Origin: Verrucomicrobia bacterium UBA3761
GTDB taxonomy: Bacteria; Verrucomicrobiota; Kiritimatiellia; RFP12; UBA1067
Direction of reading: 5' to 3'
Assembly (NCBI GenBank): GCA_002371135.1
Contig: DFGB01000045.1
Span: 5,478 to 69,477 of the forward strand
Length of the DNA stretch: 64,000 nt
In this document: positions 4,440 through 64,000 of the stretch, piece after piece
Position numbering within the stretch: the stretch's first letter is position 1
Layout: each line of letters starts with the position of its first letter
The notes under the pieces: model-generated
Told to the model about the DNA's origin: nothing
What the model saw: the letters and a program-made list of their open reading frames with translations, nothing else
The model's database searches: none
Translations under genes and position numbers: made by a program

Positions 4440-4680
4440 AAAGGGTGAAGAGGCCGCGCACGGGAGGACCGCGCTCATGCGCGGCCGAGGCAGGGAGCAA
4501 GAGATACGCTTGGCGCACAAGGAGGCGCGGCTTCAGCCGCGCAAAAACCAAAAGACGGTGCGCGGCTGAAGCCGCGCACCCCTGCTAGGGCATCCGCTTC
4601 GCGGACAGCCTTCGGCTGGGGGATATTCCTTGGCGTTAGTGGCCGCGGCTGACTGCCAACTGCCAACTGCTAACTTCCCA
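4440..4680. repeat. REP/BIME-like repeat cluster 1. It holds hairpins GCGCGGCT-TCA-AGCCGCGC at 4526..4543 and 4561..4578, one ~55-bp conserved unit B in reverse orientation at 4579..4636, and a CCAACTG tandem at 4655..4676.
   Basis: The sequence matches clusters at 11350, 20440 and 55790; the stem is a perfect 8-bp inverted repeat with a 3-nt loop, flanked by CAAGGAGG. Confidence 0.8.
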
Positions 4681-7577: not shown

Positions 7578-7745
7578 GAGGGGAGAGAAATTTTCGATTT
7601 GCGATTTACGATTTGCGATTTTTATCTCCCTTGAGAGCGCAGAGTTCGCAGAGAATTTTTCGATTTCCGATTAAACCTCTGCGGCCTCTGCGTTCTCTGC
7701 GGGAGATAAAAATGGGAAATCGCAAATCGTAAATCGTAAATCGTA
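7578..7745. repeat. Nested tandem-heptamer palindrome. Outer arms (CGATTTG/CGATTTA)x4 and their complement (CAAATCG/TAAATCG)x4 enclose inner (CGCAGAG)x2 and (CTCTGCG)x3.
   Basis: Read directly from the sequence; the element lies between the stop of gene 7750..8580 and the start of the carboxypeptidase gene. Confidence 0.85.
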
Positions 7746-7749
7746 AATT

Positions 7750-8580
7750 TTATTTCACATAATGCTTTGTCAGTTTGACGAGCGTCTTCCAGAGTTCCTC
7801 CTGGCTCTTGCACGAGCAGATCGCGTCTTGCGCGTCCTTCTTCTGGAAAGCGTTGACGAGGTCTGCGAGAAGGCGCAGGTAAAATGCGGAGACGGCGACC
7901 GGGATCGCGGAGAGGAACACCATGTGCACCTTCTCGCCTTCCCAGTCGATGCCCTCCTTGCTGACGCCGAGCGCGAGGGTGAGCGCGCCGCCTTCGACGC
8001 CGCGGACGTGCGGGAACGCGAGGCCGTTGCCAAGCGCGGTCGAGAGGATGTTCTCGCGGCTGATGGCGCCGGAGACGAGCGTATCGGCGTTGTCGATGAA
8101 GTTGTGCGCCTCCATCGCCGTCGCGAGTTCCTCGATGGCCCCGTCGCGCGTCGACGAAGAGAGCTCGGGGATCATCAATTCCTGCGCGCTGAAGCGGCAG
8201 ATGCCGACGCGGACCTCGTCGCGGTCGGGCTTTTCGGCGATGTTCTTCGGCGTGTCGTCGCCGTCCGCGAACAGGATGCGCCCGCAGCTGGAGCACGTCA
8301 CGAGGTGCTGGCCGAGGCGGACTTGCTGGTCCTGCGCGGTCGGGATCTGCATGCCGCAGACGGAGCAGGCGCCTTTGGTGCGGGCGGCGAGGACTATGTG
8401 GCTCTTCTTGTAGAGCCGCTCGTAGATCGTGGCGACCTGCGGAGAAAGCCGGCTTTTCAGCTTGTCGATCGAGTCGTTCAAGGCGTCGAGATGGCTGCCG
8501 TCGCCTGTCTGGAAATGTTCGTCGCGGATGAGCACCATCTCCTGGAGCTGGCGCATTATGTTGATCTGGCTTTTCATCAT
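7750..8580 (-). CDS. Fusion protein: N-terminal C4 zinc-ribbon (COG1579-like) and C-terminal PTS EIIA type-2 (PtsN / EIIA-Ntr-like) domain
   Basis: 276 aa; CSVCGMQIPTAQDQQVRLGQHLVTCSSCGRILF is the zinc-ribbon signature and ...LGNGLAFPHVRG... is the EIIA-2 active-site His region. An RBS AAGGGA sits 8 nt upstream. Confidence 0.65.
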   Translation of the reverse strand: MMKSQINIMRQLQEMVLIRDEHFQTGDGSHLDALNDSIDKLKSRLSPQVATIYERLYKKSHIVLAARTKGACSVCGMQIPTAQDQQVRLGQHLVTCSSCGRILFADGDDTPKNIAEKPDRDEVRVGICRFSAQELMIPELSSSTRDGAIEELATAMEAHNFIDNADTLVSGAISRENILSTALGNGLAFPHVRGVEGGALTLALGVSKEGIDWEGEKVHMVFLSAIPVAVSAFYLRLLADLVNAFQKKDAQDAICSCKSQEELWKTLVKLTKHYVK

Positions 8581-11349: not shown

Positions 11350-11580
11350 GAGTGGGCGCTTGAACGTCAAGGAGGCGCGGCTTCAGCCGCGCCACGCTCG
11401 TTGTCGTCGCTAGGACGTGGCGCTCGGACGTGGCGCGGCTAAAGCCGCACCTCCTTGGCGCTAGGGCCGCGCACGAGGGGGCGCGAGGGGGGCGCTTGAA
11501 CGTCAAGGAGGCGCGGCTTTAGCCGCGCCACGCTCGTTGTCGTCGCTCGGGCGTGGCGCTAGGGCCGCGCGCGAGGGGGC
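11350..11580. repeat. REP/BIME-like repeat cluster 2: hairpins at 11375..11392, 11434..11451 (imperfect) and 11501..11518, with a ~57-bp direct repeat at 11355..11411 and 11482..11538.
   Basis: The motif GCGCTTGAACGTCAAGGAGGCGCGGCTT(C/T)AGCCGCGCCACGCTCGTTGTCGTCGCT occurs twice. Confidence 0.8.
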
Positions 11581-15035: not shown

Positions 15036-15148
15036 ATATTCCCCAAGTCGACGTCGAATATTATAGCACATCGCACAACGACTTTCAACTCCCCCAATAT
15101 TGCGTAGTTTCATTCCAAACTTGCATAATTCGCTCATACGGGAGGGGG

Positions 15149-15266
15149 AGTTGAAAAGTAAAAGGTTGAAAAGTTGAAAAGTAAAAAGCGCGGGAGGGCC
15201 ACGCCGCTTTGGAGACAGAGCCGTGCGTTTCAACTTTTCAACTTTTCAACTCTTCAACTTTTCAAC
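15149..15266. repeat. Tandem-heptamer palindrome: (GTTGAAAAG)n array, central spacer, (CTTTTCAAC)n array
   Basis: Read directly from the sequence. The element provides the last codons (VEKLKS) and TGA stop of the BASS transporter gene and creates false ORFs rich in FNFSTFQLF. Confidence 0.85.
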
Positions 15267-16235
15267 CATCTCTTCTCGGGCCCGCCGGGCGACGAGAAGG
15301 TTGAACACGCCTGCCATGAGCGCGCCGGAGATGGAGTGCCAGACGCAAGAGACGGCGGAGGCGACAGCGGCCTCGGGCATCGCGGGGAAGTGGCGCGCGG
15401 CGAGCACCGTCGCAAGGCCCGCGTTCTGCATGCCGACTTCGATCGAAATAGTACGCTTCTTCGCATCGGAGAACCGCGCCGCGACGCCGGTCAGGTAGCC
15501 CAGCGCGTAGCCGAGGCCGTTGTGCAAAAGGACGCCCGCGAACACGAGCGCGCCGCTCGACGCGAAGCGCTCGCCCTGCGCCGAGACTACACCGCCCACG
15601 ATCGCCGCGAGGGCCAGCACCGCCACGCCCGGCATCACTTTCATCGCTTCTCCGTATGCGCGCTTCTTGCCGTAGAGCGCGTTCAGCGCGAAACCGAGCG
15701 CCACGGGCGCGATAGTCACGTAGAGGATGCTCTTGAACATGCCCGCCGCGTCCACGTCCACGCTCTCGCCCGCGAGCCACATCATCAAAAGCGGCGTCAT
15801 CACAGGCGCGAGAAGAGTCGAGACCGTCGTCATCCCGACGGAAAACGCGACGTCCCCCTTGCAAAGGAAGCTCATGATGTTCGAAGAAACCCCGCCCGGA
15901 CAACACCCGACAAGGATGAGCCCCACTCCGACCGCCTTCGGCAGCCCCATCGCATGCACGAGAGTCCACGCGATGAGCGGCATGAGAGTATATTGCGCCG
16001 CCGCGCCGATTGCCATATCGAGCGGACGCGAGAGCAGGATGCGGAAGTCCTCGGCCTTGAGCGTCATGCCCATCGAGAGCATGATGACGCCGAGGATCGC
16101 GGTCTGCGTATCGCCGCGCACCCACGCGAACGTGCCCGGCGCGAAGAACGTCGCGACCGCGACCGCTGTTATGAACGCCGGCGTCCACTTCGCCAGCCAT
16201 GCCGATATCATTTGCAGTATTTTCATATCAGGGCA
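15246..16235 (-). CDS. Bile acid:sodium symporter (BASS/SBF) family transporter
   Basis: GLILVGCCPGGVSSNIMSFLCKGDVAFSVGMTTVSTLLAPVMTP is typical of PF01758; the start is set at MKILQMISAWLAKW. Confidence 0.8.
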   Translation of the reverse strand, partial: CPDMKILQMISAWLAKWTPAFITAVAVATFFAPGTFAWVRGDTQTAILGVIMLSMGMTLKAEDFRILLSRPLDMAIGAAAQYTLMPLIAWTLVHAMGLPKAVGVGLILVGCCPGGVSSNIMSFLCKGDVAFSVGMTTVSTLLAPVMTPLLMMWLAGESVDVDAAGMFKSILYVTIAPVALGFALNALYGKKRAYGEAMKVMPGVAVLALAAIVGGVVSAQGERFASSGALVFAGVLLHNGLGYALGYLTGVAARFSDAKKRTISIEVGMQNAGLATVLAARHFPAMPEAAVASAVSCVWHSISGALMAGVFNLLVARRAREEMVEKLKS

Positions 16236-16237
16236 TT

Positions 16238-17929
16238 TCAAACGAGCCAATTCTCCGCCTTGCGGGAGATAGCATCGTACCACGCTTGCTCGTCTTCAGC
16301 CTCGCTTGCGACAGTCATCGAATATTCACAAAAAGCCCGGACTTTGGCTGGGCTTGGCACGTAGCCGCAATTCTTCGCCTGTGTCAGCATTCCCGCGAAG
16401 CGATCCAGCGTCAACGGTATCACAACAGACTTGCCGCCGTAATGTTTGATGGGAATCCGGTGCAGCCCATAGAAATGCGAAATGGAACTTGGATTTATTG
16501 TCGGCGCGACAAAAAGGCAATATGCCGGCTTGCCGGTCTTTGCCTTAATATCGCCAAGATGTCTGGCCACGGGCTCGCCTTCGGCATCATACTGCCTGTT
16601 GCCCGACATAAGTGTCACTTCAACCGTGACGGTGAAATCGCCATAGTCGCAAATGATGTCTGCATTGTTGCCTGGCGCGGTGGAAAGTGGATTGCCGGCA
16701 TCGTCAAATGTGAAGTTGGCTTTTATATTGCCGCCATCCATCATGGTCATCGCACGCCAAGCGTTCCACTCAAGAGCAAGTGGCGGGTCGTAAACATATT
16801 TTGCTTTGATGTCTTTGAACACGCCAAGAATCTCATCGTATTTTGCAAACGACTTGAGCTCCGTGACCTGAGCGTCGATGACTGCGGCTCGCCGAGCCTC
16901 TTGTGCGTGTTTGATGCGTCGTTTGAGTTCATTCGCACTTTGCCTGCGCGCGTCAGACTCCGAATCGACAGCCCCGCTCCTTACAGCCTTCTTCAAAAGC
17001 GTTTTGCGGTCGTCTGTCAACAGTCTAGGCGCGTCTGCACAGTAAAGATGTTCACAATACGCCGCTTTGTCAACCACAAAAACCGGGTTTCGGTCGACAG
17101 TCCTCAGAATATACTCAACCTCGTCGCGCCGCGACTCGATGATTGAAATCGTCCGTCCCGGATTGCCAATCGTAACGAGACCTGTTGCGCGAAGATAGCG
17201 TACGCAAGCATCGGCATAATCGCGCATATTGCCCGCCTTGGTCTTGATGAATTTTTCAAGACTTGTTTCATGCGACTCGCGTGTCCGAATGCATCCAGAT
17301 GCAATTTCCTGCGCAAACATCGAAGAGACTATGCGCGAACGTTCGCTGCTCAAGAACTTTTTATATTGCCCCTTGCGCGCGACCTTCTCCACTCTGAACC
17401 GGCGAACGGCATCGACAATCGCATCGAAGTCGTGCCAGTCTGTCAGTTGCATGCCGAAGAGGCACAATTCATCAAATGCCAATCGCCCCAACGAATGAAC
17501 AAGCCGGAGAATCTCAAGGTATGGACGAACGCAAAACGTCCTTGCAATCTTCGGATTCGCGATGTGAAATGGCGATGGCAGCTGAAATTTAAGCAACTGC
17601 CGCAAGAGGGCTTCTTCCGCTAAATCTCCATCAAGAAAATTCGCCCCGGCGGATGTAATCGATATTGGGTCGAGATTGACGAATCCCAGAGCCTTGGGAC
17701 CGCGGGTTATGCGGTCTCTTGCGCTCAGAGCAGGGTCTTTCTGATTGTACTCGCCCTCAAATTCTGGAAGTTGGGCGAGACGTTTCATGAAAGAGGCTTG
17801 CAGCGTGGTGTTGGATACCCACCTCGCCCCTGCAAACTCGCGGACGAGCAATTCAATTTCCGGACGCATCTTGAATGGCGTCCTTGGCGATGTCACGAAG
17901 AACAGCGAAGGGCTCTTGATTTTCGCCAT
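16238..17929 (-). CDS. Putative type II restriction endonuclease (563 aa), partner of the Dam-type methyltransferase
   Basis: It follows the methyltransferase gene with 1 nt of spacing (TGAcATG), lies in a low-GC islet, and has no other recognisable family. The specificity is probably GATC-containing, inferred only from the Dam-like partner. Confidence 0.45.
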   Translation of the reverse strand: MAKIKSPSLFFVTSPRTPFKMRPEIELLVREFAGARWVSNTTLQASFMKRLAQLPEFEGEYNQKDPALSARDRITRGPKALGFVNLDPISITSAGANFLDGDLAEEALLRQLLKFQLPSPFHIANPKIARTFCVRPYLEILRLVHSLGRLAFDELCLFGMQLTDWHDFDAIVDAVRRFRVEKVARKGQYKKFLSSERSRIVSSMFAQEIASGCIRTRESHETSLEKFIKTKAGNMRDYADACVRYLRATGLVTIGNPGRTISIIESRRDEVEYILRTVDRNPVFVVDKAAYCEHLYCADAPRLLTDDRKTLLKKAVRSGAVDSESDARRQSANELKRRIKHAQEARRAAVIDAQVTELKSFAKYDEILGVFKDIKAKYVYDPPLALEWNAWRAMTMMDGGNIKANFTFDDAGNPLSTAPGNNADIICDYGDFTVTVEVTLMSGNRQYDAEGEPVARHLGDIKAKTGKPAYCLFVAPTINPSSISHFYGLHRIPIKHYGGKSVVIPLTLDRFAGMLTQAKNCGYVPSPAKVRAFCEYSMTVASEAEDEQAWYDAISRKAENWLV

Positions 17930-17930
17930 G

Positions 17931-18788
17931 TCACACCTCGTAGTTTGTGACGACGTAGTGCGTTGCTTTGGAATGGAATCGATTGCGGATATTTACCGCG
18001 TAATCCTTTGCGTATTCAAACTTCACGAGGTCGCCATAAAGTTCCTCCGTCAATGGTGTATGACCAATGATCATCAACGCACGACAACGCAATTCCCGAA
18101 AAAGTTTGGCAAGCCGGCGATGCTCGGCCTCGTCAAATCCATTTGCCAGTTCCTGATTGCCATAATCGTTGAAAACACAATCATACGGCGGATCAAGATA
18201 CATAAAATCATTCTCTCCCGCCCGCCTGAACGATTCTTCGTAATCTGCGCACAGAATCTCCGTGCGTTGCAGAAGTCGGGAATGTTCGCGTGTGACAAGT
18301 CTGGTGTTGAAATTCTCGTATCTGCCGAACGGGACATTGAAATGCCCCTGCGCATTGAACCGTATCATACCAGAGTATGACGTCTTGTTAATGAAAAAAT
18401 ATAGCGCAGCCCGGGAATATTGCGCCGGAGCAATTCCATTGTATTGGTCGCGAAGTCTATAATACAATTCTTCGTTTGCGTTGGGAATCCGATCTCCCGG
18501 ATGCATTTTCTTTCTCTCTTTGTAATCCGCCTGATTGCGCACATAAATGGCTTCGATTTCTGCCAACTCTCGCGAAAGTTCATCAAAACGATTTCGAACA
18601 TCCCTGTAGAAGTTTATCAAGGGTTCATTTATGTCCCCGATAACCGCATGTTGCGGTGCAAGAGCAAAAAAAGTCGCCCCGCCCCCTACGAAAGGCTCAT
18701 AGTACGTTTCATAATTCTGCGGAATAAACCGTTCATACCGAGGAATCTCCTTGGACTTTCCACCACGATATTTGACAAGTGGTTTCAA
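17931..18788 (-). CDS. DNA adenine methyltransferase (Dam / D12-class N6-adenine methyltransferase)
   Basis: It starts with TTG at 18788 and a strong RBS AAAGGAAAGGAGA; the N-terminus MKPLVKYRGGKSKE matches the Dam start, and EPFVGGGA and DPPY motifs follow. The longer ORF-track N-terminus is rejected. Confidence 0.85.
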   Translation of the reverse strand: MKPLVKYRGGKSKEIPRYERFIPQNYETYYEPFVGGGATFFALAPQHAVIGDINEPLINFYRDVRNRFDELSRELAEIEAIYVRNQADYKERKKMHPGDRIPNANEELYYRLRDQYNGIAPAQYSRAALYFFINKTSYSGMIRFNAQGHFNVPFGRYENFNTRLVTREHSRLLQRTEILCADYEESFRRAGENDFMYLDPPYDCVFNDYGNQELANGFDEAEHRRLAKLFRELRCRALMIIGHTPLTEELYGDLVKFEYAKDYAVNIRNRFHSKATHYVVTNYEV

Positions 18789-19006
18789 GCCGGATCTCCT
18801 TTCCTTTGCAAGGCCGATACAAGGTGCCGCGGCCATCGCAGCAAGCATCCACCCAACGCGCTGCAAAAACTCCCCGCGCGTGATGCCTTGGCTTCTTTGG
18901 CACGATTTTGCCGACGTTCCCATTTCTTCTGTTCTCAAGCCTTTCATAGCCACGACACGAATGCAATATACAATCACAACGCCTATTGCGATTCATGCAC
19001 AACATA

Positions 19007-19040
19007 TTATACCAAAACTCCCCGGTTTCCTCAACCGTGA
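19007..19040 (-). promoter_or_regulatory. Candidate promoter for the methyltransferase/endonuclease operon (TTGAGG-N17-TGGTATAAT on the minus strand)
   Basis: An extended -10 TGGTATAAT matches the family at 21915, 43353, 45524 and 59486; it implies a leader of about 220 nt. Confidence 0.4.
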
Positions 19041-19081
19041 AAGTTGCACATTGCAATTTTCCGTTTCCTCCAAATACCCCA

Positions 19082-19110
19082 TTGACCGGACGATGAGAAT
19101 TTGATACAAT
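19082..19110 (+). promoter_or_regulatory. tRNA promoter TTGACC-N17-TACAAT
   Basis: It sits 29 nt upstream of the mature tRNA 5' end. Confidence 0.55.
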
Positions 19111-19138
19111 ATGTGCCCGTTGCGGTAAACAAGCAATT

Positions 19139-19214
19139 GGCGAGATAGCTCAGTTGGTAGAGCGCAGGACTCATAAGCCTAAGGTCAAGGGTTCGATCCC
19201 CTTTCTCGCCACCA
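19139..19214 (+). tRNA. tRNA with anticodon CAT (Met, or possibly Ile2/lysidine), 76 nt including the encoded CCA
   Basis: GGCGAGATAGCTCAGTTGGTAGAGC.. anticodon loop CTCATAA ..GGTTCGATCC..TCTCGCCACCA has good acceptor, D and T stems. The anticodon stem has only 3 Watson-Crick pairs (CAGGA/GCCTA). Confidence 0.8.
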
Positions 19215-19230
19215 TTCGATTTACCTCCTA

Positions 19231-19259
19231 GTCCAGGAATTTCCTGGACTTTTTTTATT
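19231..19259 (+). terminator. Rho-independent terminator GTCCAGGAA-TT-TCCTGGAC followed by TTTTTTT
   Basis: A perfect hairpin with a U-tract directly after the tRNA. Confidence 0.8.
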
Positions 19260-20413
19260 TATTCTCCGATTGCGACGCGGATGAAGAGCGTGAAAGCGCC
19301 GGAGGGGAGTTCGCGCGCGACGTCGAACGAGAACGTGCCATCGGCGGAAACGGCGGCGTTGGCGATGCAGTCCTTCGAAAACTCGGCGTCGTCGAGTTCC
19401 GAGAGGGACGTCGCGGTCTTCACCTTGATGTCGGACGCTTTGAACGCGGCGAGCAGCGCATCCGACGCCTCCAGCTCGCACGTCAGATGCACAGTCGGGG
19501 TGGAATTGGCGACCGAAACGGAAACGCCCGTGATTTCCAAGTCCGCTTCTTCCGCCGCAGCGGTTATGACGCGCGTTTTGCCATCGTCTAAAAGCGTGTT
19601 AGCGAGCGATGGGGCGATTGAAACTTTCGTCGACGTCGTGCCTGAGCCGTTGCCTATGGGCGAAGAATCGGAGCCTGCGGTCGCCGTCACCGTCCCGCCG
19701 GTTATTGTCACCGAGTCGCATCTTGCATTAGAGCCGCTCGCGCCGCCTATGCCGGCGGAGTACTTTCCGCCCGTGGCAACAACCGTCCCGCCCGTTATCA
19801 ATATGGCGCCGCACTTTGCCAGATTGTAGCCGCCGCCAATGCCACAACCGATCGTCGTCGAAGGCGTTTTTGCCGTCACCGTCCCGCCGTTGATGGTTAT
19901 AGTGCCGCAGTCGGCCGGTTTGGCCGGTTTGCTGGAAAGACCACCCCCACCGCCAATTGCCGCGCCGTATGACGTGGATTCCGCTTCGATTATTCCCCCT
20001 TCAATGACGATATTCCCGGCGGAATTGCCTTGGAACGCGCCTATCGCGGCAGAATTGCTCCCGCCTTTGCAAATCAATTTCCCGTTCCCCTTCTCCCCGC
20101 CTTTTATTGTGAGAGTGCGATTCGCGGCGATGAATATCGCCGGTGTATTCTTAGCGGTAATCGTGTTGACGGTGTCGTCGGCGATTATGAGCTCGGCGTC
20201 GCTCTCAAAATGCAGACCGCCTGAAGTTGTGCTTGATGTCGTCAGCGTCACGTTATCAAGGGTGATGACGCTTTTATCTGTATATTTCGTTGCATAAATC
20301 GTGCCACTGAGCGTATCCTCCGTCGCAAACGCGGCCAGAGCGCCGAATGCGAATGCAAAAAACGCGCAGCCGTGACGCAGCGCGCGGATGAATGAATGCA
20401 ATTGGACTTTCAT
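19259..20413 (-). CDS. Secreted parallel beta-helix repeat protein (adhesin-like)
   Basis: It has a signal peptide MKVQLHSFIRALRHGCAFFAFAFGALAAFA and repeated GGTVTA/ITGGTVVATGG/IGGG motifs; the start is set at 20413, because the ORF-track extension runs into the REP cluster. Confidence 0.55.
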   Translation of the reverse strand: MKVQLHSFIRALRHGCAFFAFAFGALAAFATEDTLSGTIYATKYTDKSVITLDNVTLTTSSTTSGGLHFESDAELIIADDTVNTITAKNTPAIFIAANRTLTIKGGEKGNGKLICKGGSNSAAIGAFQGNSAGNIVIEGGIIEAESTSYGAAIGGGGGLSSKPAKPADCGTITINGGTVTAKTPSTTIGCGIGGGYNLAKCGAILITGGTVVATGGKYSAGIGGASGSNARCDSVTITGGTVTATAGSDSSPIGNGSGTTSTKVSIAPSLANTLLDDGKTRVITAAAEEADLEITGVSVSVANSTPTVHLTCELEASDALLAAFKASDIKVKTATSLSELDDAEFSKDCIANAAVSADGTFSFDVARELPSGAFTLFIRVAIGE

Positions 20414-20439
20414 GCGCGGTATTTTACCATATTTCATTC

Positions 20440-20890
20440 CGGCTGGCAAGCGAGAGGCCCAAAAATTTACGCCAGCGCCAAGGAATATCCCCCAGCCGAA
20501 GGCTGTCCCAAGAAGCGGATGCCCTAGCGCCAAGGAGGCGCGGCTTTAGCCGCGCTAGTCGAGCGAGGGGGGTGCGCGGGAGGGCCGCGCTTCAGCGCGG
20601 CCGAGTTATGGTGCGGCTTGAGCGCCAAGGAATATCCCCCAGCCGAAGGCTGTCCGCGAAGCGGATGCCCTAGCAGGGGTGCGCGGCTTCAGCCGCGCAT
20701 AGACGAACGAAGGGGGGTGCGCGGCTAAAGCCGCGCCTCCTTGGCGCAGACGAAGGTCGAGACTGGCGCAGACGAAGGTCGAGACTGGCGCAAGCGAAGG
20801 CCTCGCTTGGGCGAGAGTTTCAAGTTGCTTCGGGGGCACTCGCCAAACGGTCCGGGAGGGGTGTTTCGCCCCCTTTACGGGGATTGCGCG
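20440..20890. repeat. REP/BIME-like repeat cluster 3: unit B at 20463..20520 and 20616..20676; hairpins at 20538..20555, 20682..20699 and 20719..20736; a 22-bp direct repeat CAGACGAAGGTCGAGACTGGCG x2 at 20746..20789; and the palindrome GGCCGCGCTTCAGCGCGGCC at 20586..20605
   Basis: Read directly from the sequence; it shares peptides with false ORFs 20392..20673 and 55722..55913. Confidence 0.85.
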
Positions 20891-20919
20891 GCGGAGGGTG
20901 GATTTAGTAGCATATTGGC

Positions 20920-21499: not shown

Positions 21500-21680
21500 T
21501 TGAAAAATAAAGTCTACTTTTCAAGCTTTCCATTTTTTATCGCAGAGACCCGAGAGGCGCAGAGTACGCAGAGAGAAAATTTTTTCGATTGTTTGATTGT
21601 TTTAAGCCTCTGCGTACTCGGCGTCTCGGCGTCTCTGCGATAAAAAATGAAAGGCTTGAAGCAATCGAAAATTCTCTTTG
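21500..21680. repeat. Tandem-heptamer palindrome: TTTTTTATCGCAGAGAC..(CGCAGAG)..centre TTTTTTCGATTGTTTGATTGTTTT..GTCTCTGCGATAAAAAA, plus a small TTGAAAA..TTTTCAA hairpin at 21500..21526
   Basis: It uses the same CGCAGAG/CGATTTG heptamers as the element at 7578..7745 and lies at the 3' end of the regulator gene. Confidence 0.85.
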
Positions 21681-23068: not shown

Positions 23069-23082
23069 AAGACATTTAGCAT

Positions 23083-23225
23083 TGCATTTTGCCATTTAGG
23101 GACCGATCCCGTCGCACCGGTACAAATGAAACAATGGACAAATGGCAAAATGCAATGCCAAATGCCAAATGCAAAATATAAAATGCAACGGGGAAATGGA
23201 GAACGGTGAAATGCCAAATGCCAGG
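23083..23225. repeat. Palindrome with GCAAAAT/GCCAAAT heptamer arrays: perfect 19-bp arms ATTTAGCATTGCATTTTGCCATTT / AAATGGCAAAATGCAATGCCAAAT, then (GCCAAAT/GCAAAAT) tandems
   Basis: It lies immediately downstream of ilvC, and related half-elements occur at 24395..24426 and 25650..25727. Confidence 0.8.
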
Positions 23226-32249: not shown

Positions 32250-34163
<1,914 letters not shown>

Positions 34164-34246
34164 TGTCTTGTTCCTTTCTGTCATCTAACTGGACTTCAGC
34201 TACGGACTAGACAACAGCAACAGCCGTGCCAATGGGCGAAAACCCC

Positions 34247-34330
34247 CGTTTGTCGCGTTTTGTCGCGCCGTTTTGTCGCAGTGCGACATCAATGCGCGAC
34301 ATTTGCAAGCCAATGTGCGACATACAGCGC
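34247..34330. repeat. Tandem-heptamer palindrome (TTTGTCGCG)x3 followed by (TGCGACAT/GCGCGACAT)x3
   Basis: Read directly from the sequence; it lies upstream of dnaK, overlaps the 3' end of gene 34289..34990, and is not a CIRCE element. Confidence 0.8.
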
Positions 34331-34990
34331 CGCGTCCCAGACGCCACAATAGGCGCTCGCGGTGCGGAGGCGAAGGAAATCCCAGAGCTCCGCAAATGCG
34401 AGATTGGTCGTCGCCGCAAGCCACACGAGCACGACGGCGACATTCGCGACGTAAATGAAGGTCCACGAGAAAATCCGCCCATAGAGCGTTATATCCGGCT
34501 GGCGCGTCGCGAGAGTATCGAGCGTGAACAAGATGTGGAACGCCCACGTGAAAGCGATTGCGAACATCCACGCCGGCAGGCACGGTAGCGGCCGCACGAA
34601 CCACCAAGTCGCCAGCGCCAGCAATATCACTATAAAGGAATAGAACGGGAAGAAATACGGCGCGAGGGTGATGAGGAGGTTCGACTTCGTAAGCCGCACG
34701 CTGCCGCCCGACGCCGCCACGCGCAATTTCGAGGGCTTCGCGAAGAACAAGAGCCCCCACAGCGCATGCGTCAATTCATGCGCGAGCACATACGTCTTCA
34801 TTGGATGCGGCAAGCACACCCAGACGACCAGAAACGCCGCCATCCCCGCGACAAACGCGATCGTCTCCGCGCCGAATACGCCGCCGCCGCGGCCCGCCGC
34901 CGCCCAGACTGCGTCGAACAACACTCTCGCCAGCGCCCAGCAAAACGGGAGCGCCGCCAAAGCAAACAGCATTCGCAGGAAGGCCCGCAT
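34289..34990 (-). CDS. Hypothetical polytopic membrane protein with an HExxH motif (putative zinc metalloprotease)
   Basis: 233 aa with YVLAHELTHALWG and about 6 TM segments. Confidence 0.5.
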   Translation of the reverse strand: MRAFLRMLFALAALPFCWALARVLFDAVWAAAGRGGGVFGAETIAFVAGMAAFLVVWVCLPHPMKTYVLAHELTHALWGLLFFAKPSKLRVAASGGSVRLTKSNLLITLAPYFFPFYSFIVILLALATWWFVRPLPCLPAWMFAIAFTWAFHILFTLDTLATRQPDITLYGRIFSWTFIYVANVAVVLVWLAATTNLAFAELWDFLRLRTASAYCGVWDAALYVAHWLANVAH

Positions 34991-35834: not shown

Positions 35835-35870
35835 CGGCACGAGGCCATCAGGCCCCGTGCCGCTTTTTTA
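35835..35870 (+). terminator. Rho-independent terminator CGGCACGAGGCC-ATCA-GGCCCCGTGCCG followed by TTTTTT
   Basis: A hairpin with a U-tract after the CBM48 gene. Confidence 0.8.
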
Positions 35871-35968
35871 AAGGTTGAAAAGTTGAAAGGTTGAAAGGTT
35901 GAAAAGTACAGGGATGACGCGCTTTTCAACTTTTCAACTTTTGAACTTTTCAACTTTTGAACAACTGC
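35871..35968. repeat. Tandem-heptamer palindrome (GGTTGAAAAG/GGTTGAAAG)x4 and (CTTTTCAAC/CTTTTGAAC)x4, of the same heptamer family as 15149..15266
   Basis: It sits between convergent genes and supplies the last codons (LFKS) and TGA stop of valS. Confidence 0.85.
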
Positions 35969-38667
35969 GCGAGCTTTTCGAGCTGGGCGATTTTCTCTTT
36001 GTTGTCGGCGAGTTTGCGGCGGGCCTCGGCGACGACCGCCTCCGGGGCGTGCGCGACGAAATTTTCGTTCGCGAGTTTCGCTTCGGACGCCTTCACGAAA
36101 CCGGAAAGCTTCGCTAGTTCCGCCGCGATGCGCTTGGATTCGGCCGCCTTGTCGACGAGGCCTTCCAGCGAAAGATACACCGTGCCGAACGGCGTGATCT
36201 TGGAGGGCATCGCAAGATCGCTTCCCGCCGGCGCGAACGCGACTTCCTCGGCGCGCATCGCCTTCTTGAGCGAAGAAGCCTCCGCCGCGGCGCGAGCGTC
36301 GTCCGTGGCAATCGTCACCTTGACGAACGCCGCCGGCGAAACCTTGTATTCCGCCCGCAAAGCGCGCACCGCCGTTATCGCTTCCCTCTTCGCGTTCACG
36401 AAATCGTACACCTCTTCTTCAAGCCCCCACGCGGACTTCTCCGCGTCGCTGTAGCCCTTCGGGAATTCCGCGAGCATTATCGTCTCGTCTTCCTTCAGAT
36501 AGCCAAGCTGGTGCGCGACCTCCTCGGTCACGAACGGCATGTAGGGATGCAGGAGGCGAAGCGCCTTCCAGAAGACATCGCGCAAAATCGCGAGCGCCCT
36601 CGCCTTGTCGGGCGCGTCCTTGACGTATTCGACGTACCAGTCGCAAAGCTGCGTCCAGAAGAAGTCGTACACCGCGAGCGCGCCGTCCTGGATGCGATAC
36701 TGCTCCAGAAGCGCGTTCACCTTCCTGCACGCTTTGTCGGTCGCAAGGAGAATGTGCTTCTCGTCGGAAGTCAACTCTCCAGCCGCCATAGTCCCCAGAT
36801 CCGCGACCCTGCCGCACTCTCCTTCCTGCATCTGGAAGAAACGCGCGGCGTTCCAGATTTTCGTCGAGAAATTGCGGCCGATTTCGAACTTCTCCTTGTT
36901 CACCTTCGTATCGCATTCGAGCGACGTGATGAGGGCAATCGAGAAGCGAAGAGCATCGGCCGAATACATGTCGATCAACTCCAACGGGTCGAGCGAATTG
37001 CCGAGCGACTTCGACATCTTCCGGCCTTGCGCATCTCGCACGATGCCGTGGATGACGATATTCTTGAACGGCGGCTTGCCCATGAAGTGAATGCCGGCCA
37101 TCATCATGCGAGCGACCCAGAAAAAGATGATGTCCTGCGCCGTCACGAGATCGCTCGTCGGGTAGTAGTAGTCGAGATCCTTCGTCTTTTCCGGCCAGCC
37201 AAGCGTGGAGAACGGCCACAGCCACGAAGAAAACCACGTATCGAGCACGTCCTCGTCCTGCGAAAGGACGGGCGGCTCGGAGCATTCGAGCCCCTTCGCC
37301 TTCATCAGGGCGACGGCCTTCTTGCGCGCCTCTTCGAGCGTCTCGGCGACCACGGTCTCGCACTCGCCGTCGATGTCGAAATAATACGCCGGGATGCGGT
37401 GGCCCCACCAGAGCTGGCGCGAGATGCACCAGTCCTGGATGTTCTCCATCCAGTTGAAATAAATCTTCGACCAGCGCTCGGGGACGAACTTCACAGACCC
37501 GTTGCGCACAGCCTCGATGGCAGGCTCGGCGAGCGGTTTCATCTTGACGAACCACTGCTTGGAAAGACGCGACTCCACCACCTCGTGGCAGCGGTAGCAA
37601 TGGCCGACCTGGTTGTCGTAGTCCTCGATATGGTCGAGGAAGCCGCCCGCCTCGAGATCGGCGACGAGCGCCTCGCGGCATTTGAAGCGATCCATGCCAG
37701 AATATTTCGCGCCGGCGAGGTCGTTCATCGTCCCGTCACCGTTCATGATGTTGATCTCTTCGAGACCGTGGCGCTTGCCGACGAGGAAGTCGTTGGGGTC
37801 GTGCGCCGGCGTGATCTTCACGATGCCGGTGCCGAACTCCTTCTCCACGTAGTCATCGCTGATAACGGGAATCTCGCGGCCCGTGAGCGGCAGAATCACA
37901 TTCTTGCCCACAAGATGCGCATAGCGCTCGTCCTTCGGGTTCACGGCGACGGCGGTATCGCCCGGCAGAGTCTCCGGACGCGTCGTCGCCACCATCACAT
38001 AGTCGGCGTAAGGCTCGCCGGCGACGCCCTTCGCGCTGCCGACGACGGGATAGCGCACATACCAGAGGTGGCCGTGGTGGGCTTCGTGCTCGACTTCGTC
38101 GTTCGCGAGCGCCGTCCCGCAGCGCGGGCACCAGTTGACGATGTAGTTGCCCTTGTAGACGAGCCCTTCGTCGTAGAGTTGCGTGAACACCTTCGCCACG
38201 GCGCGCGAGCAACCTTCGTCGAACGTGAAACGCTCGCGCTGCCAGTCCGTCGAATTGCCCAGCATGCGCTGCTGGTGGACGATCGTCCCGCCATACTGCT
38301 TCTTCCATTCCCAGACGCGCTCCACAAACGCCTCGCGTCCGAGGTCCTGACGGCGCTTGCCTTCCTTGCGCAACGCCTTTTCGACCACGTTCTGCGTCGC
38401 AATGCCGGCGTGGTCCGTGCCGGGCAGCCACAGCGTGTTGAAGCCGCTCATGCGCTTCCACCTGACGAGGATATCCTGGATCGTCTGGTTCAACGCGTGC
38501 CCCATGTGCAAAATGCCCGTCACGTTCGGCGGCGGGATTACGACCGAATACGGCGTTCCTTCGCCCGGCTCGGAATGAAAATAGCCCTTCTTCTCCCAGA
38601 TAGGATACCACTTGGCCTCGGCGGCCTTCGCATCGTAATGCTTTTCCATGATTGTCTCGTTCTTCAA
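35950..38667 (-). CDS. valS: Valine--tRNA ligase
   Basis: 905 aa with HMGH and KMSKS motifs (PPPNVTGILHMGHAL; KMSKSLGN) and a C-terminal coiled coil; the start may be the MEK at 38649. Confidence 0.95.
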   Translation of the reverse strand: MKNETIMEKHYDAKAAEAKWYPIWEKKGYFHSEPGEGTPYSVVIPPPNVTGILHMGHALNQTIQDILVRWKRMSGFNTLWLPGTDHAGIATQNVVEKALRKEGKRRQDLGREAFVERVWEWKKQYGGTIVHQQRMLGNSTDWQRERFTFDEGCSRAVAKVFTQLYDEGLVYKGNYIVNWCPRCGTALANDEVEHEAHHGHLWYVRYPVVGSAKGVAGEPYADYVMVATTRPETLPGDTAVAVNPKDERYAHLVGKNVILPLTGREIPVISDDYVEKEFGTGIVKITPAHDPNDFLVGKRHGLEEINIMNGDGTMNDLAGAKYSGMDRFKCREALVADLEAGGFLDHIEDYDNQVGHCYRCHEVVESRLSKQWFVKMKPLAEPAIEAVRNGSVKFVPERWSKIYFNWMENIQDWCISRQLWWGHRIPAYYFDIDGECETVVAETLEEARKKAVALMKAKGLECSEPPVLSQDEDVLDTWFSSWLWPFSTLGWPEKTKDLDYYYPTSDLVTAQDIIFFWVARMMMAGIHFMGKPPFKNIVIHGIVRDAQGRKMSKSLGNSLDPLELIDMYSADALRFSIALITSLECDTKVNKEKFEIGRNFSTKIWNAARFFQMQEGECGRVADLGTMAAGELTSDEKHILLATDKACRKVNALLEQYRIQDGALAVYDFFWTQLCDWYVEYVKDAPDKARALAILRDVFWKALRLLHPYMPFVTEEVAHQLGYLKEDETIMLAEFPKGYSDAEKSAWGLEEEVYDFVNAKREAITAVRALRAEYKVSPAAFVKVTIATDDARAAAEASSLKKAMRAEEVAFAPAGSDLAMPSKITPFGTVYLSLEGLVDKAAESKRIAAELAKLSGFVKASEAKLANENFVAHAPEAVVAEARRKLADNKEKIAQLEKLAQLFKS

Positions 38668-38703
38668 TATTTGCTCTCGTGGCTGAATATTATATCATAT
38701 AAT

Positions 38704-38825
38704 GAGGGAAGAGGGAAGAGGGAAGAGGGAAGAGGGAAGAGGGAAGGGGGAAATGTGAAAATGTCTTTGCCGCAGTCGGGCGGATGCCGCCAACCGCCGC
38801 ATCATTTTCACATTTCCACATTTTC
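38704..38825. repeat. (GAGGGAA)x6 microsatellite followed by the palindrome GGGGGAAATGTGAAAATG..CATTTTCACATTTCC
   Basis: It lies in the divergent region between the valS start and the GH43 start; a REP-like hairpin GGGCCGCGCTTCAGCACGGCGCC follows at about 38843. Confidence 0.8.
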
Positions 38826-38917
38826 TGTCGCTCTGGGCTAAAGGGCCGCGCTTCAGCACGGCGCCTACCCGAACGGAGTATTGCCTTACAGGGCCTGGAT
38901 ATGATACAATTCCCGCC

Positions 38918-40273
38918 ATGAAAACCATTCTCATTTTCACGTTGGCGGCTTTGTCCGGCGCGGCCCAGGCGGCGGACGGTGCCCTCATGCCGATCATCCA
39001 GACGAAGTTCACGGCCGACCCCGCGCCGTATGTCCACGATGGCGTCGTATATCTCTACACCACCCACGACGAAGACGACGCCGACGGTTTCAAGATGAAG
39101 GATTGGCTTCTCTACACTTCCACCGACATGGTGAACTGGCGCGACTGCGGCGCCGTCGCCTCGCTCGCCGATTTCCCGTGGGCCCGGAACAAGGAGAACG
39201 GCGCGTGGGCGCTGCAGGTGATCGAACGCGGCGGCAAGTGGTTCATGTATTGCCCGCTGCACGGCAACGGCATCGGCGTGCTCGTCGCCGATTCGCCTTA
39301 CGGCCCCTTCAAGGATCCTCTCGGCCATCCGCTCGTCTGGCAGAAGGAGCATTGGAACGACATCGACCCGACCGTGTGGATCGACGACGACGGCCAGGCC
39401 TATCTCTATTGGGGCAACCCGCACCTCTACGGCGTCAAACTGAACGAAGACATGATTTCGTATTCCGGCCAAATCGTCCAGTTCCCCAAGATACGCGACT
39501 ACCAGGAAGGGCCGTGGTTCTACAAGCGCAACGGACGCTACTACCTCGCATTCGCCTCCACCTGCTGCCCCGAGGGGATTGGATATGCGATGTCCGACGC
39601 GCCGTTCGGCCCGTGGGAATACAAGGGCCACATAATGGACCACACGCCAAAGACGCGCGGCAACCATCCCGGCATAATCGACTACAAAGGCAAGAGCTAC
39701 TGCTTCGGTCTCAACTACGACATCCTCCGCCTCTCCACCGATACGCACCACGAACGGCGCAGCGTCTCCGTGCAGGAAATGGAATACCGCGACGACGGCA
39801 CGATTCCCGAACTTCCGTACTTCAAGTCCGGCAAGTTGACGCAAATAGAGCCGTTCGATCCATACCGCCGCGTCGAAGCAGAAACGATGGCGTGGGGATA
39901 CGGGCTCAAGACGCGTCCCGACGTCCCCCGCACACTGCCGCAAAACCAGATCGTATTTGACGCCGACGATGGCGAATACATCCTCGTAAAAGGCGTGGAC
40001 TTCGCCGGCGGCGCGAAAGAAATGACGCTATCCATCAAGCCGCTCGCGCCTGGCGCCTCGATTGAAATCAGGCTCGACGCGCCGGACGGCGCGCTCGCCG
40101 GCAAGGTTGCGTTCGCGGAAGCGGCGGACGGATTTGAAACATTCACGACGCCGCTCGAAAACGCCTCCGGCGTGCACGACCTCTATTTCGTCTTCCGCTC
40201 GGGCGTCCCCGGCGGCAAGAACCTCCTCGAATTCGACTGGTGGCGTATCGCGCAAATAGGAAGCAGGAAGTAG
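38918..40273 (+). CDS. Glycoside hydrolase family 43 (beta-xylosidase / alpha-L-arabinofuranosidase-like) with a C-terminal carbohydrate-binding module
   Basis: A signal peptide and the GH43 catalytic region ..FTADPAPYVHDGVVYLYTTHDE.. ; a C-terminal beta-sandwich (CBM6-like). Confidence 0.8.
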   Translation: MKTILIFTLAALSGAAQAADGALMPIIQTKFTADPAPYVHDGVVYLYTTHDEDDADGFKMKDWLLYTSTDMVNWRDCGAVASLADFPWARNKENGAWALQVIERGGKWFMYCPLHGNGIGVLVADSPYGPFKDPLGHPLVWQKEHWNDIDPTVWIDDDGQAYLYWGNPHLYGVKLNEDMISYSGQIVQFPKIRDYQEGPWFYKRNGRYYLAFASTCCPEGIGYAMSDAPFGPWEYKGHIMDHTPKTRGNHPGIIDYKGKSYCFGLNYDILRLSTDTHHERRSVSVQEMEYRDDGTIPELPYFKSGKLTQIEPFDPYRRVEAETMAWGYGLKTRPDVPRTLPQNQIVFDADDGEYILVKGVDFAGGAKEMTLSIKPLAPGASIEIRLDAPDGALAGKVAFAEAADGFETFTTPLENASGVHDLYFVFRSGVPGGKNLLEFDWWRIAQIGSRK

Positions 40274-40337
40274 GAAGTAGAAAATTTGCCGCCCGGGCGT
40301 GTCGTACGCATTATCTCCTACTTCCTACCTCCTACTT
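40258..40337. repeat. Tandem-heptamer palindrome (GGAAGCA/GGAAGTA)x3 .. (CTACTTCC/CTACCTCC)x3
   Basis: It sits between convergent GH43 and pectinesterase genes and contains the TAG stop of GH43 and the last codons of the pectinesterase. Confidence 0.8.
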
Positions 40338-41222
40338 GATTTTTATCCACGGAAGGCGGCGCGATGTTTCGGCGCCCGTTCCGGTGCAGTTGTATTCGGC
40401 GAAAAACGCCGTCTTGTCGGTGCCGTCGTTTGGACGCCACTGGCTCCAGCCCTCGGGCTTGATGCAGTCGTCCATTACGCAACCGTCAAACACCACTTGC
40501 GCGTGCGGCCGCCAGGGGCGCCCCAGGAGCGTCTTGACGCCGGGCGCGGCGGTGATGCGGCAACGGCGGAAGAGGAAACCCTCGCGCCCCTCAGGCGTCG
40601 CCGCCGCCGTGATATATCCGCGCAGGAGACTGCGTATCTCGCAGCGGTCGAACACCGCGCGCGACTGGCCGAATATAAAATCGACCGTCCCCTCTATCAA
40701 ACACTCCTCGAAATGCTGTCCGCAATAGCGCGTATACTCGGGCTCTTTCGCCCACTCCTTGACGCCCTGCGAGACATACAGGGTGTCCTGATGGCCGGAG
40801 ATGCGGCACTTGGCCACTTCCACGCCGTCGCCCTCGATGTGCAGCGCGACGGCCTGGCCGACGCCGCGTCCGCCGGCGGCGACATTCGCGTCCGACGCCG
40901 TGTTGCGTATCCAAAGGCCCGCAAGCCGCACATCGTCGGCCTCGACTTTCATCGTCCACGTGCGGAACGTGCCAAGCGCCTCGCCGGCGGAATTCGTGAG
41001 CGAGGCATAGTCGCCCCACTCCACCACCGCCTCGCCCGGCCCTTCGTGCACGATGGCGAGAGCGCGCTTCTCGCGCGGAATCGTCACCTTCTCGCGCCAG
41101 ACGCCATCGGGAAGCGTAATCATATCGCCGGGCTTGGCGGCGTCGATCATCTCCTGCAGCGTCGCCGCGGCGGCGGACGAAACCGCGGCGACCGCCGCCA
41201 GCATCGCGAGCGCCGCCTTCAC
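40332..41222 (-). CDS. Pectin methylesterase (carbohydrate esterase family 8)
   Basis: It has a signal peptide and the CE8 motifs GHQDTLY, DFIFG and LGRPW; a probable GTG start overlaps the paaK stop (GTGA). Confidence 0.85.
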   Translation of the reverse strand: MKAALAMLAAVAAVSSAAAATLQEMIDAAKPGDMITLPDGVWREKVTIPREKRALAIVHEGPGEAVVEWGDYASLTNSAGEALGTFRTWTMKVEADDVRLAGLWIRNTASDANVAAGGRGVGQAVALHIEGDGVEVAKCRISGHQDTLYVSQGVKEWAKEPEYTRYCGQHFEECLIEGTVDFIFGQSRAVFDRCEIRSLLRGYITAAATPEGREGFLFRRCRITAAPGVKTLLGRPWRPHAQVVFDGCVMDDCIKPEGWSQWRPNDGTDKTAFFAEYNCTGTGAETSRRLPWIKIK

Positions 41223-49777: not shown

Positions 49778-49831
49778 ACTGCGATTTTACCACAATCCCC
49801 CAACTTTGCGCAAGGGGGAAATTTGAGATTT

Positions 49832-50030
49832 TTTGGGAGGGTTGGGAGGGTTGGGAGAATTGGGATAAATTGGGAGGATTGGGATTATTGGGAAAATTAG
49901 GCGCTATAGACTCTCCCAATCCCAACTCTCCCAATCTATCCCAATCCTCCCAACTATCCCAACCCTCCCACAAAAACAAGCGGGCGGGGTTGCCCCCGCC
50001 CGCGCTTCGGGAGGGACGCGCTTCAGCGCG
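49832..50030. repeat. Tandem-heptamer palindrome (TTGGGAG/TTGGGAT)x7 .. (CTCCCAA/ATCCCAA)x7, followed by the hairpins GCGGGCGGGGTTGCCCCCGCCCGC (49978..50001) and the REP-like GACGCGCTTCAGCGCGTC (50013..50030)
   Basis: Read directly from the sequence; it lies between the giant gene stop and the four-helix gene start. Confidence 0.85.
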
Positions 50031-50059
50031 TCCACACCCGTTGTCAAGGCATTCAAGCC

Positions 50060-59514: not shown

Positions 59515-59571
59515 GGGAGGGCCGCGCTGGAAGCTCTAGATATTCTAGAATTTCCAGGACTTCCAGAGCCT

Positions 59572-62094: not shown

Positions 62095-62130
62095 AGAGCA
62101 GTTGGCGGTTGGTAGTTGGCAGTTGGTCCT
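62095..62130. repeat. (AGTTGGC/GGTTGGT)x4 tandem heptamer array, which is the inverse complement of the CCAACTG array at 4655..4676
   Basis: Read directly from the sequence. Confidence 0.6.
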
Positions 62131-63679: not shown

Positions 63680-64000
63680 GGCTGCTTCCTCCCGAAAAAG
63701 TTCAAATCAAGACCCGCTCGCTTGGCGGCGAGGATTTCCTTGCGCAATGCATCTTCGAGAAACGCCATCTTCTGGCGCTTCGTGGCGGCGAAAAGCCCCG
63801 GACGCGCGACGCCGGCCGGCTGGACGCGGACGGGCAGATTCTGCCTCGGCGCGGGCGCCGGCGCCGGATTCGCCGCCGCCACGAACACCTGCTTCTCGAC
63901 GACTTTCTCGACAACTTTCTCCACCACCTTCTCGACGACGCGCACGACTTCCACCGGCACCGGCACTTCGACGCGCTTCTCCACCGTCACCACCTTCTCG
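63676..64000 (-). CDS. VEK-repeat protein, partial (5' end beyond the window)
   Basis: It contains (VEKVVEK)n and then a Pro/Ala-rich tail; the frame stays open to the window edge; its stop overlaps the start of the downstream gene (ATGA). Confidence 0.45.
   Translation of the reverse strand, partial: EKVVTVEKRVEVPVPVEVVRVVEKVVEKVVEKVVEKQVFVAAANPAPAPAPRQNLPVRVQPAGVARPGLFAATKRQKMAFLEDALRKEILAAKRAGLDLNFFGRKQP

Follow-up and report, generated by a model that had tools for sequence, protein, structure and literature searches.

Classical intrinsic terminators have a G+C stem of 5-14 bp and a discrete U-tract; bidirectional forms have reportedly been found, and in B. subtilis terminator stems are said to overlap the ends of open reading frames (ORFs). 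The repetitive extragenic palindromes (REP) and bacterial interspersed mosaic elements (BIME) of enterobacteria and the Correia elements (Correia repeat enclosed elements, CREE) of Neisseria act as terminators or mRNA stabilisers and can alter C-termini, and REPs reportedly lie within 15 nt of stops. The stop and start codons of mycobacterial interspersed repetitive units (MIRU) are said to overlap flanking genes, 7-bp repeats upstream of hmw in Haemophilus influenzae are phase-variable, and the foldback (FB) transposons of eukaryotes have inverted arms built from short tandem subrepeats. Here we compare with these systems the repeat arrays in a 64,000-nt stretch of contig DFGB01000045.1 (the window; 60.8% G+C), from a Kiritimatiellae-like gut or rumen bacterium, and in particular a palindromic array at 15149-15266 that holds the stop codon of a BASS transporter gene. 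We consider it probable that these are slippage arrays at gene ends, whose stops are a by-product and whose palindromes would serve as terminator-type hairpins.

Like intrinsic bidirectional terminators, the elements place a stable hairpin directly past a gene, in part of them (E3, E9, E11 and E12) with an A-rich 5' and a U-rich 3' side that are the same on both strands; some stand between convergent genes (E9 and E11, as numbered below), and the core of the array at 15149-15266 (E3) has a G+C stem followed by a T-tract. Their stems, however, are 25-58 bp long, A+T-rich and made of tandem 7-9 nt units around loops of 15-95 nt, and some reverse the polarity or lie in a divergent spacer. They resemble REP/BIME and Correia elements as intergenic palindromes at gene ends, over or near stops, but those families have a genome-wide consensus, whereas here the short unit alone is shared, as between E3 and E9, and the arms are repetitive and copy-variable. 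The exception is a core common to E2 and E4. No target duplication of the kind left by REP, Correia or miniature inverted-repeat transposable elements (MITEs) was found at E3, E9 and E11, and two strain comparisons showed no filled/empty polymorphism. MIRU are likewise intergenic tandem repeats of strain-variable copy number with stop/start overlap, but their units are 40-100 bp, in frame with short ORFs, not inverted and of a single sequence family, whereas the 7-9 nt units here are usually of non-triplet length and often inverted. Long inverted arms of short tandem subrepeats are shared with FB transposons, which unlike these elements are kilobases long and eukaryotic, and which are mobile, whereas no mobility was seen here. 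Contingency-locus heptanucleotide repeats also have intergenic 7-8 nt units whose copy number changes by slippage between strains, but they are single arrays at few loci, whereas the arrays here are pervasive, often palindromic and mostly at 3' ends. A literature search on the unit sequence gave no result, and those on Kiritimatiellae repeats and on palindromic tandem repeats at stops returned only general inverted-repeat work, weak evidence of novelty; the repeat hairpins appear to be undescribed.

Arrays at gene ends in the window

Slippage-prone A+T-rich arrays of 7-9 nt units crowd the intergenic DNA of the window genome, and many form long inverted-repeat pairs. Tandem Repeats Finder (TRF) and inverted-repeat calls gave about 14 A+T-rich array elements, 10 of them palindromic, and array elements account for 30% (1136 of 3742 nt) of mapped intergenic DNA. 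The units are locus-specific (GTTGAAAA, at two loci, TAGGAAG, TTGGGAGGA, GAGGGAA, ATTTGCG, AAATGCC, ACTGCCA and others). AT-rich arrays of 6-10 nt units occur at 15.6 per 100 kb, compared to 2.6 per 100 kb in controls (1.29 Mb from other phyla, 77 unrelated loci), and the 64 kb hold four AT-rich palindromic array pairs, compared to only two weak pairs, of other units, in the same 1.29 Mb; a fifth pair at 63847-63966 is G+C-rich and probably due to chance. Nine of the palindromes were folded, and each gave a very stable hairpin (-32 to -102 kcal/mol; z = -3.5 to -12.7). All but one of the ten follow a gene 3' end, among them those at both convergent pairs with a sizeable spacer. Fifteen gene 3' ends come within 150 nt of an element; the stop of seven lies inside it and that of three more within 11 nt. 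An Rfam covariance-model search of the window matched no element, the sole hit being a tRNA at 19139-19211. The closest valS relatives were rumen and gut Kiritimatiellae/Lentisphaerae metagenome-assembled genomes (79-83% identity). The parts at and around E3, E9 and E11 are as follows:

15060..15088, minus strand: promoter-like site, TTGAAA-17-TATAAT with TG, between E3 and the next gene
15149..15187: E3 5' arm, (GTTGAAAA/GTAAAAG)n, from TRF and inverted-repeat calls; pairs with 15228-15267
15188..15227, minus strand: E3 loop, a short G+C stem then a T-rich run, resembling a canonical intrinsic terminator
15228..15267: E3 3' arm, (TTTCAACT)4.9, whose minus strand codes VEKLKS and the TGA of BASS
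15246..16220, minus strand: BASS/SBF transporter gene (Pfam SBF, 9e-40), last 6 codons and stop in the E3 arm
35836..35869, plus strand: G+C hairpin and T6, by sequence and fold the canonical terminator of the CBM48 gene
35864..35964: E9, palindromic array (GTTGAAAG/GTTGAAAA)n ... (CTTTTCAA)n, arms 35864-35906 and 35922-35964
35950..38667, minus strand: valS (Pfam), last 4 codons (L F K S) and TGA inside the E9 right arm
38918..40273, plus strand: GH43+CBM6 gene, last 5 codons (IGSRK) and TAG (40271-40273) in the E11 left arm
40254..40344: E11, palindromic array (TAGGAAG)n ... (TCCTACT)n, arms 40254-40285 and 40313-40344
40332..41222, minus strand: pectinesterase, codons I K I K and TAG inside the E11 right arm

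A reading of the letters made without database searches (the sequence-only reading) had described the palindrome at 15149-15266, and it is a real inverted pair: (AGTTGAAA)4.4 at 15149-15182 is inverted relative to (TTTCAACT)4.9 at 15228-15266 across a G+C-rich spacer of 40-45 nt, and its RNA fold of -56.9 kcal/mol (z = -7.8) was equalled by none of 200 shuffles. The same reading had the transporter end in VEKLKS-TGA within the array, which we could verify. The BASS frame is ORF 15246..16283 on the minus strand (Pfam SBF match 9e-40), with a start choice implied by the 324-aa gene call of the 96%-identical protein P0001, and it ends ...MVEKLKS-TGA, with the stop at 15246-15248 and six codons plus stop within the E3 right arm; ORF 15262..16200 was rejected as the transporter, having no Pfam hit. 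All 120 BASS homologues are conserved through ...SGAL(M/L)AG(V/I)FN; beyond this point their basic tails, about 8-45 residues long, show no conservation. Read against these homologues, the array codes the end of an unconstrained tail, which is too variable for replacement to be judged. The coding sequence of the tail contains a G+C-rich hairpin at 15268-15300, and this stretch is frameshifted relative to strain L082 (LLVARRAREEM versus LLGPGGPEK); at about 965-1005 of L082 the hairpin stem is perfect over 18 bp, with the conserved F-N codons (TTCAAC) paired to the array's first GTTGAA unit. A terminator-like site in the E3 loop (15205->15187, GGCGTGGCCCTCCCGCGCT then TTTTACTTTT) is followed by the promoter-like site at 15060..15088 and by a phytase-like gene with a probable ATG at 15037, the promoter-like site placing E3 between two transcription units.

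At E9 (minimum free energy, MFE, -53.2 kcal/mol on the plus and -35.5 on the minus strand), the T-run of the CBM48 terminator forms the outer end of the left arm, and valS enters the right arm, ending LFKS-TGA at 35950 as the sequence-only reading had it. Its last residues, ...QLEKLAQLFKS*, compare with ...QLEKLAKLFAN* in the orthologue L002, of the same length, and ...QLEKMAKLFA* in L001, one residue shorter; L-F is conserved, the stop falls at the codon of L002 and the last two residues alone differ. Judged by this alignment, the valS C-terminus is native and not replaced.

E11 (MFE -32.5 kcal/mol on the plus and -42.5 on the minus strand) receives a gene on each side, and both stops lie where they had been placed, the GH43 TAG at 40271-40273 in the (TAGGAAG)n arm and the pectinesterase IKIK-TAG inside the right arm, 40313-40344. 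GH43 orthologues end 2-6 residues past a DWW motif and the window protein 9 past it (RIAQ plus the arm-coded IGSRK), so that it is, on alignment, about 5 aa longer. The pectinesterase ends 3 residues past the invariant W292. Of nine homologues only one, 44% identical, is equally short; the other eight, among them all those at 54-56% identity, run on, by 25-35 aa in the closest (48-56% identical). By this comparison the enzyme was probably truncated at the E11 arm boundary. Beside the GH43 start, a promoter-like site at 38881-38918 (TTGCCT-18-TACAAT with TG) ends 8 nt upstream of the ATG, a position that suggests a leaderless or near-leaderless GH43 mRNA.

Every ORF placement in the sequence-only reading proved right, and its interpretation is partly supported: the arrays do code the final 1-6 codons and the stop of several real genes. 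Alignment of gene ends with orthologues had been proposed as a check of the idea that native C-termini were replaced. Replacement is plausible only for the pectinesterase, at 25-35 aa shorter; it fails for valS and for gene 34289 (below), the BASS tail is unconserved, and GH43 is longer by its 5 or so residues.

Copy number, polarity and the source of the stops

Copy-number change was judged from two strain comparisons (L082, L207). E3 has 5 units in the window and 3 in L082 (BASS 96% identical), which still ends VEKLKS* despite its frameshifted upstream tail. In L207 (95.3% DNA identity), GAGGGAA has 5 units compared to 7 in the window and the E11 right arm 4 compared to 3, one CACATTTC unit present in the window is missing, and the GH43 and pectinesterase ends are identical to those of the window. 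The two comparisons thus differ in unit number, never in presence or absence, and the elements fit slippage-type variable-number arrays, with short head-to-tail units whose copy number differs between close strains. Of the earlier proposal that the elements had been inserted or expanded at gene ends, expansion is borne out by the variable unit number, while mobile insertion is not, copies with a shared unit having unrelated loops and flanks. At greater distance, the BASS gene of L208 (83% identical) has its TAG stop in a palindrome of a different unit, (GGCAATA)2 ... (TCTTGNC)2. Upstream of BASS orthologues there are palindromic arrays of further units, (GGTTGAGAG)n/(TTCTCAAACCC) at 1-110 of L208 and (ATTATGG)n/(CATAATT)n at 340-480 of L209; these other-unit arrays indicate that the phenomenon spans the clade and that units turn over. 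There were no arrays in 76 kb of the nearest species-representative relatives (valS 80-83%, BASS 82% identical), so the state preceding array origin is not visible there.

As an independent sample, an exact search of metagenome contigs for (GTTGAAAA)2.9 returned at least 120 stretches, and the high-GC contigs were analysed. Arrays occur there in every intergenic context, often abutting stop or start codons to within 0-4 nt. Among the matches listed, 8 of the 24 genes that enter an array in the GTTGAAAA orientation use its TGA (five in unit 1, three in unit 2) and 6 further ones stop 1-4 nt short of it, compared to 0 of 13 overlapping genes where the stop-free orientation is faced (8/24 versus 0/13, Fisher one-sided estimate about 0.02). 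All 21 GTTGAAAA/TTTTCAAC pairs among the matches listed (E3, E9 and loci L099-L162; about 15 loci) have the purine/A-rich arm 5' and the T-rich arm 3', and across all A+T-rich inverted repeats polarity is weak outside the GTTGAAAA family. Units that recur over many contigs are GTTGAAAA, GAGGGAA, TTGGGA and TCTAGAA. We also observed (GTTGAAAA)n filling entire operon junctions from stop to next ATG (loci L087-L166, e.g. L101, L119, L152, L146, L145, L159), (GTTGAAAA)n in either orientation directly before start codons, often without a visible Shine-Dalgarno sequence, and arrays of differing units joined head to tail (L096, L117, L127, L136).

Twelve elements were read inward from both sides in all three frames. 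In each of E3, E9 and E11 no more than one of the six entry frames stays open beyond 9 codons. Among the other nine, eight have stop-free entry frames and E2 first stops only after 14-47 codons. A gene 3' end comes within 150 nt of six of the nine: at four the gene stops at the edge or 2-84 nt before it, and at E1 and E8 the stop of one entry frame falls inside the element. The claim that units containing TTGA or TAG act as built-in stops is correct in practice for such units, and does not generalise, as it describes only 3 of 12 elements. Because the unit period is not a multiple of 3, an incoming frame rotates through all phases and a stop is never far: in GTTGAAAA, with its TGA and period of 8, the three entry phases end after 0, 3 or 6 codons, matching the 'KS*' of valS and the 'VEKLKS*' of BASS. 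Neither the complement TTTTCAAC nor the TTCCCTC strand contains a stop in any of its frames, which accounts for the long spurious ORFs at 15223..15498 ('MRFNFSTFQLFNFST'), 35899..36117 and 38690..39943 ('...FPLPSSLFPLPSSLF'). Peptides of the type 'FNFSTFQLF' and 'LPSSLFPLPSS' had already been called spurious, and indeed they are read-through of stop-free repeat strands. Annotation of this clade will carry such systematic artefacts, with long ORFs through stop-free arms and C-terminal residues that may be repeat-coded junk. It will also carry contig breaks inside arrays: a 100% identical Logan contig (L081, equal to window 38718-41500) terminates inside (GAGGGAA)n, which indicates that arrays break short-read assemblies.

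In a mechanism consistent with these observations, the palindromes would be terminator hairpins whose A-rich 5' and U-rich 3' flanks grew into arrays by slippage. The arrays extend right up to coding sequences, and at unconstrained gene ends the array boundary would have shifted into the ORF, or the ORF's own stop would be lost, and translation would halt at the first in-frame stop of the array. In GTTGAAAA and TAGGAAG arms, TGA or TAG combined with a period of 8 or 7 would meet all three phases within about three units, and this stop-rich geometry would shield the protein from later copy-number change, located deeper in the arm. Arms of tandem repeats would tolerate slippage because unequal copy numbers still pair in shifted register. 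Stop overlap is a side effect of unit composition and period, kept in bounds by purifying selection on long junk tails, and not a selected device. Selection that keeps the stop inside the element, as the sequence-only reading had argued, is unnecessary, since a TGA or TAG with a non-triplet period stops every frame within about 3 units and such stop content suffices for the overlaps.

Function of the palindromes and competing explanations

The palindromes most likely act as intrinsic-terminator-type hairpins, often bidirectional. Inverted repeats in bacteria are strongly enriched just downstream of stop codons (PMC13155455). In the window, stable hairpins stand just past coding sequences, with A-rich 5' and U-rich 3' sides in E3, E9, E11 and E12. 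The 21/21 polarity of the GTTGAAAA family among the matches listed is the geometry of a bidirectional intrinsic terminator and supports this reading, as does the G+C stem of the E3 core with its T-tract and the promoter-like site beyond it; by a simple scan, the E3 core is the only one among the elements with a canonical stem plus T-tract. Several observations weigh on the other side. A terminator would have no obvious role at E10, in a divergent promoter spacer, and the polarity of E2, E4 and E5 is reversed, their T-rich arm being 5'. Many arrays on related contigs are single and stand directly before start codons, so that terminator function cannot account for all of the arrays. When the folding energies of the two strands were set against transcription direction, no consistent asymmetry emerged, so that RNA-level selection is not demonstrated, and a candidate form of it, through G·U asymmetry, was rejected because strand folding energies proved unrelated to the direction of transcription. 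Finally, no array-free genome was present among relatives of more than 90% identity, and overwriting of a native stop was not caught.

The view that elements were inserted or expanded at gene ends, replaced C-termini and are held there by selection for the in-unit stop is, in our estimate, unlikely. It draws on the 7 of 15 nearby gene ends that stop inside elements, the pectinesterase truncated at the arm boundary, GH43 lengthened by arm-coded residues, the VEKLKS* that is identical in two strains despite 3 versus 5 units, and the stop-bearing arm that faces incoming genes on both sides in 21/21 pairs among the matches listed. The last of these is equally predicted by terminator function, however, and the identical peptide is automatic, the copy-number change being inside the first stop. 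Moreover, valS and gene 34289 have C-termini native in length and partly in sequence, 9 of 12 elements lack early stops in several frames, and among the matches listed single arrays are stop-free towards upstream genes 13 times against 24, so that orientation is not enforced. The idea that the arrays are functionless by-products of lineage-specific slippage and template switching, with incidental hairpin potential, is a real but lesser possibility. About 30% of mapped intergenic DNA is array, copy number differs between strains, 76 kb of the nearest available relatives have none, every intergenic context is occupied to within 0-4 nt of stops and starts, and folding shows no strand asymmetry, all in its favour; the strict GTTGAAAA-family polarity (21/21 pairs among the matches listed), the E12 arms that share a 10-nt variant in register and hence are kept matched, the presence of a BASS 3'-end palindrome in two species, built from different units, and the 9 of 10 palindromes behind a gene end speak against it.

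We regard a mobile origin of the palindromes, as non-autonomous elements (MITE, REP or Correia-like) preferring gene 3' ends, as very improbable. The presence of GTTGAAAA at two window loci and in at least 120 metagenome stretches would fit, as would the 17-nt core and similar loop of E2 and E4 and the separate REP-like G+C hairpin family, but E3 and E9 have only their unit in common, with unrelated loops, lengths and flanks; no target-site duplication is visible and no direct repeats flank E3, E9 or E11. Most loci have their own unit, strains differ by whole units as in slippage, and many arrays are single and not inverted, with no associated transposase. Hardly more probable is that a protein binds the arrays, as DNA or RNA, at many sites, for instance a regulator, a nucleoid protein or one like CsrA with affinity for GGA-rich units, and that the overlap of gene ends is incidental. 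A few units do recur over many contigs (GTTGAAAA, GAGGGAA, TTGGGA, TCTAGAA), E8 (TGTCGC/GCGACA) is operator-like upstream of dnaK, and several units contain GGA or AGG; yet units vary widely between loci, GTTGAAAA is without GGA and a candidate protein was not identified. CRISPR (clustered regularly interspaced short palindromic repeats) was rejected outright, the units being 7-9 nt and without spacers.

Returning to terminator-type hairpins built by slippage, a more far-reaching form of this reading, which we put forward tentatively and with considerable doubt, is that these are undescribed gene-boundary elements of a Kiritimatiellae-like clade: polar palindromic microsatellite hairpins with locus-specific units that arise by local slippage and inter-arm copying, would serve as copy-number-tunable terminators or insulators, and could invade gene ends nearly cost-free with their stop-rich non-triplet 5' arms. 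If true, stop overlap would be the visible sign of a distinct mode of terminator building and evolution. The arrays that fill about a third of mapped intergenic DNA, the fixed polarity and the orthologous ends with different-unit palindromes suggest a distinct route for the origin and turnover of terminators or other boundary elements. Stop-codon overlap itself is an expected mechanical consequence and of modest interest; the polar copy-variable hairpin arrays are the more notable feature.

Other elements and neighbouring features

The remaining elements are as follows:

4652..4675: E1, single array (ACTGCCA)3.4, which holds the TAG stop (4670-4672) of a sugar-transferase gene
7588..7750: E2, nested palindrome (ATTTGCG)n ... 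(AAATCGT)n with an inner CGCAGAG repeat
21520..21660: E4, palindrome, core GCGCAGAGTWCGCAGAG in common with E2
23073..23223: E5, palindrome and arrays (AAATGCC/AAATGCA)n, beginning 4 nt past the ketol-acid reductoisomerase stop
34249..34330: E8, cluster of inverted TTGTCGCG/GCGACA motifs, 65-145 nt upstream of dnaK
38704..38752: E10, single array (GAGGGAA)7 in the divergent valS/GH43 spacer, origin of the 'LPSSLF' ORFs
38748..38815: E10 hairpin, GGAAATGTGAAAATG ... CATTTTCACATTTCC around a G+C core (-35.4 kcal/mol, z = -4.0)
49829..49975: E12, palindromic array (TTGGGAGGA)n ... (TCCTCCCAA)n (-102.3 kcal/mol, z = -12.3)

Gene 34289..34990 on the minus strand overlaps the TTGTCGCG/GCGACA cluster of E8, as had been reported, by about 42 nt, its last 13 codons; the motifs there are TTGTCGC(G/A) and (T/G)GCGACA, and dnaK is 32250..34184 on the minus strand. 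The product belongs to an HExxH membrane-protein family (1272 hits) and its 233 aa are typical of that family (227-244), with a Trp near the C-terminus that aligns with homologues, from which we take the C-terminus to be native. The TGTCGC motifs look like regulatory sites lying over a native gene end, a candidate operator for a heat-shock regulator.

E12 carries a 10-nt variant unit at the matching position in both arms, which points to copying between arms. The TAA stop of a PtsN-like gene (7750-7752) lies at the edge of E2. A single nested palindromic element is present twice, as E2 and E4, with the 17-nt core GCGCAGAGTWCGCAGAG, a similar TTTTTCGATT loop and outer TTTTTATC/GATAAAAA arms, and no copy of the core was found beyond the window among 209 fetched loci.

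G+C-rich hairpins of a separate, REP-like family (CAAGGAGGCGCGGCTTCAGCCGCGCC...) occupy intergenic sites, alone or clustered, at 4518-4584, 11365-11532 and 20527-20747, akin hairpins stand near 38836-38866 and 50006-50040, and the metagenome locus L126 has a similar repeated 'TTTGGCGC...GCGCCTTGGAGG' motif after an array. A TCTAGAA-type palindrome at 59524-59569 begins 2 nt past the stop of Dus (dihydrouridine synthase), and a TTCTAGAA repeat cluster in metagenome locus L149 resembles it. One unit occurs in opposite orientation 57 kb apart, as (ACTGCCA)n at the gene 3' end at 4652-4675 and as (GCAGTTG)n at 62098-62126, just upstream of the gene start at 62093 on the minus strand. Lastly, the region 16300-20900 has a lower G+C content (about 51-55% in the profiled 16300-17000, compared to about 61% overall) and a weak codon-position signal and contains the tRNA at 19139-19211, and it may be acquired DNA adjoining that tRNA.

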